From an uncultured Rhodospirillaceae bacterium (GTDB lineage Bacteria > Pseudomonadota > Alphaproteobacteria > UBA6615): 64,000 nucleotides of DNA. Position numbers and translations under genes: made by a program. Shown here one piece after another: positions 20,470 through 26,463 of this stretch (positions are counted from its first letter, which is position 1; the number at the start of each line of letters is the position of its first letter). Location: positions 1,919 to 65,918 of the forward strand of contig CAZHBA010000066.1 in the NCBI GenBank assembly GCA_964530225.1, read 5' to 3'. The notes under the pieces are model-generated. The model was not told the DNA's origin. It saw only the letters and a program-made list of their open reading frames with translations, and did not search any database.

Positions 20470-20756
20470 CAACACCCCTCGATCAAACTGCCCATCCCGT
20501 TGGTGCAATGGCGCCAAATGCACGCATGACCTTATTGCGTTGCTGCCACACCTCGCCGTCGCCACACTAATGGAGGGCTAATCCACACGGCGAAACGGGT
20601 CATTGCAACACCAAACACTAGCATTCTTGCTACCACAGGTCCCTCTGTAACGCTAGTAAACATGCGGAATAAAACGTTATGGCGAAATAGATGTTGCAAA
20701 AATACACCACTGCGTCCGATTGGTTGGGGTTGATTAATTTACCCCTTAAAGTCAGT

Positions 20757-20778
20757 TATATAAATACATTGTTATATA
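20757..20778. promoter_or_regulatory. Palindromic operator, putative SahR box
   Basis: TATATAA-ATACATTG-TTATATA perfect inverted arms about 55 bp upstream of the ArsR-methyltransferase gene; SahR-family operators are about 20-bp AT-rich palindromes. Confidence 0.7.
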
Positions 20779-20831
20779 TTTAAGTTAAAAGATAACCTGA
20801 TCTTGGTCTTAGCCTGAAGCGGTATATCTCG

Positions 20832-22730
20832 ATGGATCAACTTCTTACAGGATTACGCGCAGTAGCAGAGCCGACTCGGTTGCGAATTCTCACCTTGTGT
20901 TTGTGCGGCGAGCTTACCGCTAGCGAGCTCACCCGTATTCTCGGCCAAAGCCAGCCGCGGGTCTCGCGCCATTTGAAATTGCTGTGCGAAGCGGGTCTGC
21001 TGGACCGGGTGCAAGAAGGCACTTGGGCGTTTTTCCACATCCCCCCAACGGGGCGCGGTGCTGAGTTGGTGCGCACCTTGGTTGACCAAGTTTCCCAAGA
21101 CGACACCACCGTCGCGCGCGATTTGCAGTGGCTTGAAGTGATCAAAGAGGAGCGCGCCGAACGGGCCAACAGTTACTTCAGCAAAAACGCGGAGAGTTGG
21201 AACCGTATTCGCGCCCTTCATGTCGACGAGGCCGAAGTCGAGCAGGCGCTTGTCGAAATGCTACCATCGAAACGCGCGAAACGGTTACTTGATATTGGCA
21301 CTGGCACCGGCCGTATTTTGCAACTTCTCGAAGGCCATGCCAAACACGGTCTGGGTATTGATTCCTCCCGCGAAATGCTGGCGGTTGCTCGCGCAAATCT
21401 GGCTGACCTCCGTTACGCCCACTACACATTACGACAGGCGGACATGTATCAACTGCCGGTGTCCGAAGAATCCTTCGACCTGATTGTGCTCCATATGGTT
21501 CTGCATTTCTCGGACCGGCCTGCCGAGGTGATTGCCGAGGCGGCGCGTGCGTTGGCCTCTGGCGGCCATTTTTTGATCGTCGACTTTGCACCCCATTCGA
21601 TGGAGGAACTGCGTGACGAGCACGCTCATCGCCGCCTCGGGTTCGCCCGCGATGAAGTCGAGTCATGGTGCCGCGACAATGATCTCGACGTCACCGAAGT
21701 GCGTGATCTGGAGGGTGATCCGCTGACCGTTTCCATATGGAAATCTCGCCGGCCCGCCGCGGTCGTCCGGTCACGGCAACCTTCTGCTGCACAAGACGCG
21801 GCACAGGGAACGGAACGGACAATGGCGCATCCCTCTCAACATATATCGGACAATATTTCGGTGAGCTTCGAGTTCTTTCCGCCGAAAACCGCCGAAGCCG
21901 AGAGCGCGTTGTGGGATACGGTTTGCCGTCTGGCGCCGCTGCAACCAGCATTCGTGTCGGTTACCTACGGTGCCGGTGGAACGACGCGCGAGCATACCCA
22001 CGCCACAGTCACGCGGATTGCGCGCGAGACGGCACTCACGCCAGCCGCGCATCTCACATGCGTAGACGCGACACGAGGCGAGGTCGACGATATTGCCCGC
22101 CAGTATTGGGATACTGGGATCCGACATCTGGTAGCGCTGCGCGGCGATCCGCCGGACGGCGCTGGCAGTTACAGTCCAGCAACGGGCGGCTATGCGTATG
22201 CCAGCGACCTTGTGGCCGGTTTGTGCAAGGTGGCCGATTTCGAGATTTCGGTCGCAGCTTATCCGGAGGTACATCCCGATGCGCCGAGCCCAACTTTCGA
22301 CTTCGACAACCTGAAACGTAAAATCGATGCCGGCGCGAGCCGCGCCATCACCCAATTCTTTTTTGATAACTCGGCGTATCTGCGGTTCCGCGATGCCGTT
22401 GCCGCGGCCGGCATCGACGCGCCGCTGGTTCCCGGCATCATGCCGGTCACGAATTTTAGCGGCATCCTCCGGTTTGCTGAGCGATGCGGTGCATCTATTC
22501 CAGCCAGGCTGGCGGACGCCTTCGCCGGCCTTGACGATGATGCTGACGGGCGCCGGCGCATCGCCGAAGAAATCGCCTGTGATCAATGCCTCGATCTCGC
22601 CGAGCACGGCGTGTGCGAGTTTCATTTTTACACCTTGAATCGCGCTGAATTGACAGCGGCTATTTGTCAGCGATTAGGAGTTGTAACGACGGAAGCGCCG
22701 TTGAGTAAGAAATTGGAGGCGGCTCGATGA
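20832..22730 (+). CDS. metF: In-frame fusion of a SahR-type regulator (ArsR HTH + SAM-methyltransferase domain) and 5,10-methylenetetrahydrofolate reductase MetF
   Basis: aa 1-90 AEPTRLRIL...SQPRVSRHLKLL; LDIGTGTG motif I; from Met331 (ATG 21822) VSFEFFPPK, VTYGAGG, AHLTC, LRGD, AYPE, ITQFFF, HFYTLN; no stop codon between the parts. Confidence 0.9.
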   Translation: MDQLLTGLRAVAEPTRLRILTLCLCGELTASELTRILGQSQPRVSRHLKLLCEAGLLDRVQEGTWAFFHIPPTGRGAELVRTLVDQVSQDDTTVARDLQWLEVIKEERAERANSYFSKNAESWNRIRALHVDEAEVEQALVEMLPSKRAKRLLDIGTGTGRILQLLEGHAKHGLGIDSSREMLAVARANLADLRYAHYTLRQADMYQLPVSEESFDLIVLHMVLHFSDRPAEVIAEAARALASGGHFLIVDFAPHSMEELRDEHAHRRLGFARDEVESWCRDNDLDVTEVRDLEGDPLTVSIWKSRRPAAVVRSRQPSAAQDAAQGTERTMAHPSQHISDNISVSFEFFPPKTAEAESALWDTVCRLAPLQPAFVSVTYGAGGTTREHTHATVTRIARETALTPAAHLTCVDATRGEVDDIARQYWDTGIRHLVALRGDPPDGAGSYSPATGGYAYASDLVAGLCKVADFEISVAAYPEVHPDAPSPTFDFDNLKRKIDAGASRAITQFFFDNSAYLRFRDAVAAAGIDAPLVPGIMPVTNFSGILRFAERCGASIPARLADAFAGLDDDADGRRRIAEEIACDQCLDLAEHGVCEFHFYTLNRAELTAAICQRLGVVTTEAPLSKKLEAAR

Positions 22731-23787
22731 CACGCGAGGAACGATTTGCCGCGCTTGCCACCGAAGTGAAAGATCGCATCCTGGTTTTGGACGGCGCCAT
22801 GGGCACCGAGGTTCAGGCCCTGAACCTCAGCGAAGCCGAGGTTCGCGGCGATCGCTTTGCCGATCACGGTCAAGATCTCAAGGGGAACCACGATATTTTG
22901 AACCTCACGGCGCCCGAACTCATTCAGAAAATCCATGAGAGTTACTTCGGTGCTGGCGCCGATATTGTTGCGACCAACACGTTCAATTCGTCGGTCATAT
23001 CGCAAGCTGATTACGGTACCCAGGATTACGTCTACGAAATAAACTGGGCTGGTGCGCAACTGGCCCGCGCTTCCGCCGAAGCGACAATGGCGGCCGAGGC
23101 TGGCAGGCGATGCTGGGTCGCCGGCGCCATCGGGCCAACCAATAAAACCGCTTCCATATCTCCCGATGTCGAAGATCCGGGTTTTCGGGCGGTTACGTTT
23201 GACGAACTTAAAGACGCCTACAAAGAGGCCGCGCGCGGCTTGATCGACTGCGAGGTTGATCTACTTTTGATCGAAACCATATTCGATACGCTCAACGCTA
23301 AGGCCTGCCTTTTCGGCATTGACGAATTGTTTTCAGAATACAATTATACCGTTCCAGTTATGGTTTCAGGAACGATCACAGACCTCTCCGGCCGAACCCT
23401 AACAGGGCAGACCCCAGAGGCTTTCTGGCATTCTCTGCGCCATGCCGAACCGTTCTCGGTCGGGCTAAACTGTTCGTTGGGCGCACGTGAAATGAGATCA
23501 TATTTGGCAGAGATTGCCCGGGTTGCCGACACGCTGGTCTGCGCCTACCCCAATGCTGGGCTGCCCAATGAATTTGGCCAATACGACGAAGGGCCTGATG
23601 GCACTGCCGAACATGTTTTCGAATGGGCGGACAGTGGCCTGGTTAATATCGTCGGCGGCTGTTGCGGCACCACGCCGGCCCATATCCGCGCGATCAAGGA
23701 AAGGGTAGCAAATGTCGTACCCCGTCAGATCCCCGAGGCCGAAGCGGCGATGCGTTTGTCAGGGCTGGAGGCGTTTTCGATACGGAC

Positions 23788-23791
<4 letters not shown>
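22727..23791 (+). CDS. metH: Methionine synthase N-terminal module (homocysteine-binding domain) of a split MetH
   Basis: [39 protein letters not shown]; ATGA overlaps at both ends. Confidence 0.93.

Positions 23792-26463
<2,672 letters not shown>

Follow-up and report, generated by a model that had tools for sequence, protein, structure and literature searches.

SahR is an ArsR-family protein that Novichkov et al. reportedly described in 2014 as an SAH-responsive repressor of SAM-cycle genes. To our knowledge, the known bacterial MetF proteins are single-domain. Bifunctional regulator-enzymes (trigger enzymes) are familiar from PutA, BirA and NadR, for which experiments have established that catalysis and DNA binding are coupled. 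The available text on ArsRM describes a fusion of ArsR and methyltransferase in Brevundimonas (PMC10190100). In the accessible part of the SahR literature (Leyn et al., 2014, PMC4239095; preprint 10.1101/803072), SahR responds to SAH, recognizes a 20-bp palindromic operator and has metF and metH in its core regulon; the label “SAM-sensing”, which the initial annotation of this locus had used, does not agree with that description, and neither “fusion” nor “fused” is found in the same part of PMC4239095. No description of a SahR-MetF fusion was found in the literature searched, a body of text outside which the original SahR paper and its supplements lie. The regulatory domain of eukaryotic MTHFR, which binds SAM/SAH, is C-terminal, is described as unique and mediates dimerisation, according to the available portions of PMC5995969, PMC11018872 and PMC13001107, and the review among them, as far as its text was accessible, states that regulation by the SAM level is not a feature of prokaryotic MTHFR (PMC13001107).

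The window, that is the whole stretch of 64,000 nucleotides analysed here, contains a single open frame on the forward strand (20832..22730, 632 codons and TGA) that encodes an ArsR HTH, then a class I methyltransferase-fold sensor and then a complete MetF, an arrangement that had been proposed from the letters alone and that Pfam and NCBIfam models bear out. The winged HTH occupies residues 14-57 (20871..21002, forward strand; HTH_5, E 7.5e-12), and NF033788, a subfamily model of ArsR/SmtB, reaches 69.2 bits (cut-off 55). Residues 135-288 (21234..21695, forward strand) match Methyltransf_11/23/25/31, with Methyltransf_11 at residues 153-249 (E 8.5e-22), and carry a DIGTGTG nucleotide-binding motif at 21291-21311 of the same strand. 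The MetF part runs from Met331 to the end of the frame (21822..22730, forward strand), with the MTHFR domain at 21846-22679 (residues 339-616, Pfam E 1.4e-95). PF02219 reaches 320.4 bits (cut-off 24) and is covered over profile positions 8-287 of 287, TIGR00676 reaches 340.8 bits (cut-off 293.7), and NF006950 gives 356.6 bits, under its cut-off of 382. These domain matches far exceed what chance would give. Over their whole length, the last 302 residues can be aligned with E. coli MetF (PDB 1zp3; E 9.4e-97 over residues 8-287), and Glu28, Asp120, Gln183 and Phe223 of the E. coli protein, which we take to be catalytic and FAD-site residues, are identical in the window protein. Unlike E. coli MetF, however, the latter has an N-terminal extension of 330 residues with DNA-binding and nucleotide-binding domains.

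The protein resembles SahR in its N-terminal ArsR HTH and methyltransferase-fold effector domain, in the palindrome upstream of its own gene and in its position directly upstream of metF/metH functions; it differs in that it has no stop and continues into MetF. The assignment to SahR is suggested by architecture, operator and gene context. As in eukaryotic MTHFR, a catalytic domain shares one chain with a presumed binding domain for an adenosyl-sulfur nucleoside, but here the added domain lies on the N-terminal side, is of class I methyltransferase fold and comes with an HTH. The eukaryote-type model TIGR00677 scores 241 bits, under its cut-off of 310.05, and judging by the domain layout the window protein can count at most as an analogue of the eukaryotic-type regulated MTHFRs and does not belong to them. 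In its architecture it also recalls the trigger enzymes and ArsRM, with a domain for DNA binding and one for catalysis in the regulated pathway on the same polypeptide. Within the source genome, a draft of 130 contigs and 2.8 Mb with 99.4% completeness, the PF02219 match is unique to the fused gene, and so is the SahR-type match. As the genome has one MTHFR gene and one SahR-type gene, both predicted activities must come from the fused gene.

A SahR-type operator, the 20-bp imperfect palindrome ATATAAATACATTGTTATAT, lies at 20758..20777, 74 nt upstream of the start of the frame. All 10 relatives examined have kept such a box about as far upstream of sahR, and the palindrome appears to agree with the “20-bp palindrome” in the available part of PMC4239095, compared by description. 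With 31.4 bits it is the top PWM site genome-wide; the runner-up (21.4 bits) is found upstream of the gene for a PLP enzyme of Cys/Met metabolism. Operator scores in the four closest relatives scored are 31.4-35.8 bits. The PWM scan found no operator-like sites of 14 bits or more on the ahcY contig, the promoter scan no sigma-70 consensus promoter at the operator, and the Rfam scan no riboswitch (the only match had 13.6 bits against a 40-bit cut-off). Downstream, metH is split into two pieces on the forward strand. The N-terminal piece (22727..23791) encodes the homocysteine S-methyltransferase domain (Pfam S-methyl_trans, E 3.7e-94), and its start overlaps the metF stop (ATGA). The C-terminal piece (23788..26463) has pterin-binding, B12-binding and activation domains (Pfam Pterin_bind, B12-binding_2, B12-binding, Met_synt_B12), with ATG 23788, overlapping the preceding stop (again ATGA), as the probable start. 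The operon thus reads fused sahR-metF, metH(N), metH(C), with cistrons that overlap by ATGA.

The origin of the fusion can be read from the junction. In the five nearest relatives examined there, a stop codon stands exactly where the window has CAG as codon 325 (21804..21806, Gln325): TAG in L002, L004 and L005, TAA in L003 and TGA in L006. This bears out the recent stop loss that the initial annotation had offered as the alternative to a regulator-enzyme hybrid; the hybrid is real as an architecture and putative in its function. The initial annotation had also spoken of a 26-residue linker, of which only a small part is new. Residues 305-324 (21744..21803, SRRPAAVVRSRQPSAAQDAA) form the C-terminal tail that SahR natively has, whose homologs in the split relatives L002-L006 end in AA followed by the stop. 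Newly translated are residues 325-330 (QGTERT) alone, that is the old stop codon and the former 15-nt sahR-metF spacer GGAACGGAACGGACA (21807..21821, forward strand, residues 326-330), which doubles as the Shine-Dalgarno-like stretch ahead of the internal start of metF. An in-frame spacer of 15 nt also occurs in L002 and L003. The predicted fused chain reads AAQDAAQGTERTMAHPSQ across this stretch, and the codons CAG GGA ACG GAA CGG ACA precede Met331 (ATG 21822-21824).

The anti-SD duplex energy at the internal metF start is -5.7 kcal/mol, against -5.8, -6.9, -1.7 and -5.7 where metF begins in split relatives, while the start of sahR itself pairs more weakly (-3.3 kcal/mol). Random 20-mers have a mean of -2.67 (sd 2.3), with 8% at or below -6, and the internal signal is only moderate. 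The retained Met331 probably still gives rise to some free MetF; that internal initiation contributes is, in our estimate, an evenly balanced proposition.

In the concatenated tree, the window falls into a clade of support 96 with four split relatives, surrounded by clades of 6 and 10 rows (support 100 each) in which every other row is split. The split relatives stand at 77-81% identity, and genomes of the same genus were absent from the collections searched. The p-distances of the two halves to an outgroup lie only slightly above those of the split relatives. Lineage changes in the frame comprise 18 AT>GC and 45 GC>AT, which places the T>C stop loss in the minority class. The earlier argument that such a change runs against the local mutation trend is weak, however, since 12 of the 74 window-specific changes in the frame are T>C, so that the stop-loss change is not exceptional.

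Other fusions were searched for at several depths. Among 45 family genomes, none of the 39 others that carry these genes yields a match running through both halves without a stop; there are likewise 0 further stop-free fusions in 400 class genomes, 0 in 400 phylum genomes and 0 in 55 metagenome loci among the matches listed. The last of these is a frequency sample from a metagenome scan for closer relatives (2 of 64 parts), which gave no closer kin among the matches listed, the best being 67% identical. The in-frame layout with a separating stop is found in 16 of the 400 class genomes, 5 of the 400 phylum genomes and, among the matches listed, 4 of the 55 metagenome loci. At the protein level, the combination of ArsR, methyltransferase and MTHFR that the initial annotation had suggested looking for does exist elsewhere, including a stable clade in Rhodothermales. 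The tree requires 5 state changes, which corresponds to at least 4-5 separate origins, and the grouping of all fusions in one clade is rejected (p-AU 6e-28). On these comparisons the fusion is rare yet recurrent. A stop codon in close relatives, together with absence of the fusion from all other genomes, had been named at the outset as speaking against a hybrid; the stop is there in the relatives, but the CAG is confirmed (see below) and the fusion occurs in other genomes.

The Rhodothermales fusion, known from MAGs, spans at least 7 species genomes and 18 protein clusters and has a linker of constant length. It is 42-44% identical to the window protein and shares its domain order and operon (fused gene, then split metH), but it arose independently, through a frame change in the sahR tail and not through the stop loss seen in the window. 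It has been kept through speciation, whereas the window fusion is confined to one species-level lineage. Three of three chromosomes have no metF besides the fused gene. Loss of the internal Met suggests an obligate single chain; the HTH is kept, and an inverted repeat is still present upstream. The same architecture is thus stably tolerated in Rhodothermales.

These data are best explained as follows. In the ancestor, sahR ended with TAG, 15 nt before the metF ATG, and presumably encoded an ArsR-family SAH-responsive repressor of methyl-cycle genes. A T>C transition then changed TAG to CAG (Gln325). With the spacer in frame, ribosomes that start at the sahR ATG would now continue into metF and yield one chain of HTH, sensor, 26-residue tail and MetF; the open frame speaks for translation as a single chain. 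The fused chain would probably still bind the operator, repress its own operon until SAH rises, and also reduce methylene-THF. Both halves appear intact, and retention of both activities seems likely to us. Taken as a whole, we are fairly confident that this is a genuine lineage-specific fusion created by one base change and likely near-neutral.

That the stop loss is real we regard as close to certain. A sequencing or assembly error could have turned TAG into CAG in one assembly, the source genome being a draft in 130 contigs, and several singleton “fusions” in the protein database do resemble frameshift errors. But contigs that cross the junction without any difference or gap come from X2 (21659-23000; run of 2023), X5 (20788-21890; 2020) and X8/X9 (21477-22066; X8 from 2014), representing at least three independent seawater metagenome studies, and a separate 2078-bp contig encodes a 428-aa protein identical to residues 205-632, across the junction. 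The stretch or part of it is present in 20 run rows from 14 studies, and just 0.05 of its words in the RNA runs X19 and X20. The window allele is the sole allele seen in several of the metagenome studies, as represented by assembled contigs, in which rare TAG alleles, transcripts or translation would not show. The CAG is thus confirmed; an artefact is already near refutation, and we consider its probability negligible. If the fusion is real, the MetF extension could still have disturbed dimerisation or DNA binding of SahR, leaving the operon constitutive in a small, streamlined marine genome (2.8 Mb) in which only MetF matters. Unique substitutions in the lineage, mostly conservative, number 14 of 320 in the SahR half and 9 of 282 in the MetF half, about two to three times more than in L002, the nearest lone relative (5 and 4, respectively). 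Together with an operator score below that of most close relatives, the excess in the SahR half would be compatible with some loss of SahR function, and no further strong operator sites turned up near ahcY. But the MetF half has the same relative excess, which makes it lineage-wide and not specific to SahR. The HTH and sensor models also score well over their cut-offs, a single unique change (F60V) lies near the HTH, the operator is still far ahead as the top site of the genome, and the Rhodothermales proteins have retained HTH and upstream inverted repeat long after fusing. We therefore hold a loss of regulation to be very unlikely.

Another idea is that the tethered SAH/SAM sensor controls MetF catalysis allosterically, in addition to DNA binding, as a bacterial analogue of the regulatory domain of eukaryotic MTHFR. 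Transcription and the flux into the methyl cycle would then both depend on SAH/SAM through a single polypeptide. The repeated origins of the fusion and its retention in Rhodothermales, with constant linker, lost internal Met, sole metF and upstream inverted repeat, would fit such a selected device, as would the presence of the window allele alone across several metagenome studies and the minority class of the mutation. Yet the window protein has just six new residues and no visible adaptation of the linker, and every nearest relative gets by with split genes. With no more than one stop or an ATGA overlap between the genes, repeated origins are to be expected, and the fusion is rare (0/45, 0/400, 0/400 and, among the matches listed, 0/55). 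With T>C at 12 of 74 lineage changes, the mutation class loses its weight, and after loss of the internal start, the fact that MetF is essential would by itself hold the frame open, a ratchet that makes persistence in Rhodothermales no proof of coupling. We consider adaptive coupling unlikely, if less so than a loss of regulation. The fusion is probably not a designed allosteric device; a tolerated, near-neutral event, eased by a gene layout in which fusion is one stop codon away, is the most likely reading.

SahR and MetF are each well known, and the fusion is a real, young stop-loss event and a modestly interesting natural experiment. Even if neutral, it offers a clean and datable case in which a repressor merged with the enzyme that comes first in its operon by a single base change; the split relatives serve as controls, and the older, independent clade shows the later steps, in which the internal start is lost and the fusion is then locked in. 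It is a speculative and rather improbable thought that SahR-MetF fusions are prokaryotic MTHFRs, the first such, that carry an adenosyl-nucleoside sensor of their own, with Rhodothermales as the mature and the window as the young form, and with operon transcription and catalysis both tuned by SAH/SAM. Were it true, it would be a case of convergence with the eukaryotic MTHFR regulatory domain, and the window species and its one-stop-away relatives would form a natural before/after pair for evolving coupling. Should the tethered sensor affect catalysis, the statement in the review that SAM regulation is restricted to eukaryotes would need to be qualified.

As a separate remark, “near-neutral” may understate the case, as persistence and recurrence could also reflect selection for coupling.

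Several other candidates were set aside. Hyphomonadaceae loci that matched residues 1-623 looked like fusions, but on translation a stop appears near residue 326 and metF lies in a different frame, which makes them split. Sixteen HTH-less proteins with methyltransferase and MetF parts were considered as sensor-only fusions; many have scrambled segments or truncated ends, as from frameshifted assemblies. P0010, P0016 and P0043 are singleton clusters, and most of the 16 have one member sequence (P0024 has five). Six three-domain singletons (P0002, P0004, P0009, P0012, P0028 and P0037) lack the conserved LTVSxW motif and are therefore probably frameshift products. In a library of representatives at 50% identity, nearly all of the best 150 matches were SahR-sized or MetF-sized; fused forms are hidden inside such clusters, which makes the library unusable for counting fusions. 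An ESM Atlas search with P0023 returned only SahR clusters of about 320 aa at a score of 0.89, below the 0.9 level, which is a lead only and silent on absence. Fusion proteins of this kind are currently named only “methylenetetrahydrofolate reductase”, as in the NCBI record of a 629-aa Rhodothermales protein that is annotated just as “methylenetetrahydrofolate reductase [NAD(P)H]”.

The fused gene is a single, uninterrupted reading frame, as the initial annotation had proposed. The 632-codon open frame lies on the + strand (window positions 20832..22730), and its product carries an ArsR-type HTH (residues 14-57, Pfam HTH_5), a class I methyltransferase fold (residues 153-249, Pfam Methyltransf_11, with related models spanning 135-288) and a complete MTHFR domain (residues 339-616, Pfam, E 1.4e-95). 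With NCBIfam models, the N-terminus passes the cut-off for ArsR/SmtB and the C-terminal part that for the MetF equivalog TIGR00676. Over its whole length the MetF part aligns with E. coli MetF (1zp3, E 9.4e-97), and Glu28, Asp120, Gln183 and Phe223 of the E. coli enzyme, which we take to be catalytic or FAD-site residues, are identical. For the SahR part there is no close relative among solved structures, the best matches being generic methyltransferases and ArsR (E ~1e-11).

The fusion is real and no artefact. Twenty run rows, spread over 14 studies and mainly from seawater metagenomes, contain the stretch or part of it. Contigs of four runs placed on the window cover 21659-23000 (X2), 20788-21890 (X5) and 21477-22066 (both X8 and X9), and all cross the junction with no differing letter and no gap, which answers the suspicion of an assembly error. 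The pieces of X8 and X9 begin and end at the same positions, and these two runs are possibly not independent; one run is possibly the source sample. After these discounts, at least two independent further studies contain the junction. A rare TAG variant is possible, because contigs cannot display minor alleles. The identical coordinates of X8 and X9 (e.g., 21477-22066, 22042-22252, 22353-22882) occur despite different studies and organism labels, and the two may go back to one data set or one sample.

The origin of the fusion can be read from its nearest relatives, which whole-genome searches place in other genera of the same family (74-81% protein identity). We translated the junctions of five of them (L002-L006), all with separate genes, and aligned them to the window. 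In all five, SahR closes with a conserved Ala-Ala just before the stop codon, which is TAG in L002, L004 and L005, TAA in L003 and TGA in L006. At exactly this codon, the window has CAG (21804-21806). Between this codon and the metF ATG lie 15 nt in the window, as in L002 and L003, so that metF is in frame with sahR. Judged from this alignment, a single T>C transition suffices to account for the whole fusion. Most of the 26-residue linker of the initial annotation is nothing new: 20 of its residues belong to the ordinary SahR tail, and only QGTERT (325-330) has been added. The objection that a T>C change would run against a C>T/G>A trend carries little weight, since the 74 window-specific base changes in the frame (45 GC>AT, 18 AT>GC) include 12 T>C. 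A GC>AT bias of the lineage-specific changes is common to all lineages compared (window, L002, L004, L005, L006, L013). The GC content of the window frame, 0.590, is the lowest of the set (others 0.605-0.638), and the genome, at 2.8 Mb, is small for its family.

Such fusions are rare. Among 46 genomes of the family, 40 of which have both genes, only that of the window gives a stop-free match across the halves. Both halves lie in one frame in 17 of 401 genomes sampled from the class and in 6 of 401 from the phylum, and stops interrupt 16 and 5 of these, respectively, the one left in each sample being that of the window. In a metagenome sample of 80 loci, 55 of which extend across the junction, none is fused, 4 are in frame with one stop and 51 are in another frame. 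This proportion of in-frame junctions (4/55, loci L081-L160) is well under the one-third expected by chance, likely because overlapping ATGA-type junctions dominate. The shortage limits simple stop loss as a route to fusion.

The same architecture nevertheless occurs outside the window, in line with the suggestion to look for it in other genomes: all three domains are present in 36 of the best 120 matches in a large protein database. Group A comprises 18 cluster representatives of 624-631 aa with a linker of constant length and without internal Met; the linker of group B (four representatives) differs. In the singletons P0003, P0005 and P0006 the junction reads ARGGVM, a translated ribosome-binding site, which marks them as stop losses like that of the window. 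Six further singletons (P0002, P0004, P0009, P0012, P0028, P0037) no longer have the motif conserved at the SahR C-terminus and were set aside as probable frameshift products. P0040 (980 aa, on a 145-kb contig) combines HTH, methyltransferase, MTHFR and S-methyl_trans domains and looks like sahR, metF and the first piece of metH joined in a triple fusion; as a singleton, it may be an assembly error.

In DNA sequences, the counterparts of group A are seven Rhodothermales/“Bacteroidetes” MAG loci, in which a frame of 625-636 aa runs without a stop. In these loci the frame of the sahR tail has shifted and another residue stands in place of the old Met. All three complete chromosomes examined have the fused gene as their sole MTHFR gene; it is followed by the same split metH and keeps an inverted repeat (ATAAACA..TGTTTAT) just upstream. 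The same search returned 41 Hyphomonadaceae-type loci, which are split, the metF ATG being overlapped by the sahR TGA. In a concatenated tree of 55 rows, the window lies among split relatives and the Rhodothermales clade next to Henriciella genes that are split; the fusion state needs five changes, at least four of them forced by well-supported branches, and forcing all fused genes into one group gives a tree that is rejected (p-AU 6e-28, log-likelihood 794 lower). The Rhodothermales sahR-metF-metH cluster (L025-L031) is 69-78% identical (best segment) to those of Hyphomonadaceae (Henriciella, Hyphomonas; L032-L072) and nested beside them, which suggests that the whole cluster passed from Alphaproteobacteria into Rhodothermales, either before the fusion or together with it.

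Architecture, origin, reality, uniqueness in the genome and regulatory setting of the fusion are shown; its function is inferred. Both halves of the window protein look intact. Lineage-unique substitutions amount to 14/320 in the SahR half and 9/282 in the MetF half, about 2-3 times the counts of L002 in both, so the excess is lineage-wide and not particular to one half. At the internal metF start, SD-like pairing (-5.7 kcal/mol) is like that of the split relatives and stronger than at sahR's own start. From the intact appearance of the halves and the kept internal start, we propose that the fused chain probably still represses its own operon and reduces methylene-THF, with some free MetF probably made alongside, and that the fusion is most likely a tolerated by-product of a layout one stop away from it. 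In another, less likely model, the tethered SAH/SAM sensor would now control MetF catalysis, as the regulatory domain does in eukaryotes; the available parts of a 2026 review distinguish eukaryotic from prokaryotic MTHFR by regulation through SAM level (PMC13001107). The recurrence of fusions and the existence of a Rhodothermales clade hint at such control, but both are also expected from mutational opportunity combined with a ratchet after loss of the internal start. We found no report of SahR or ArsR fused to MetF in the literature searched, although an earlier mention in the original SahR paper or its supplements is possible; neither “fusion” nor “fused” occurs in the main text of PMC4239095 or in the accessible parts of PMC13001107.

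Besides the fused gene, the genome (99.4% complete) has no MTHFR-domain gene and no SahR-type gene. The fused gene is directly followed by metH in two pieces, an S-methyl_trans frame (22727-23791) and a pterin/B12/activation frame (start ~23788, end 26463), each start overlapping the preceding stop as ATGA. A two-cistron metH is also seen in the close relatives L002 and L003 and in the Rhodothermales locus L025, where gaps, not overlaps, separate the cistrons. A 20-bp imperfect palindrome 74 nt upstream of the fused frame (20758-20777) is a candidate operator, and the same box precedes sahR in all ten relatives examined. With a weight matrix from these 11 sites, the window box is the top site of the genome (31.4 bits versus 21.4 for the next). 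Palindrome and gene setting are consistent with published descriptions of SahR, as far as the available parts of these sources go: an SAH-responsive regulator with a 20-bp palindrome and a core regulon of sahR, ahcY, metH, metF and metK (PMC4239095), under which SAM-cycle genes are negatively regulated (10.1101/803072). The contig with ahcY (C35) has no site of at least 14 bits with this matrix, and scans detected neither a riboswitch nor a sigma-70 consensus promoter. The second-best site (contig C49, ~21291; L076 position 1992) lies ~330 nt upstream of a Cys/Met-metabolism PLP enzyme of 434 aa, a possible extra member of the regulon. Between mlaA and sahR there is a second conserved box, TGTTGCAAAAATACACCAC (~20692-20710), which L002 and L004-L006 share and of which L007 and L012 have a weaker version. 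Read as its reverse complement, this box is similar to a sigma-54 -24/-12 element, but with the spacing off by one.
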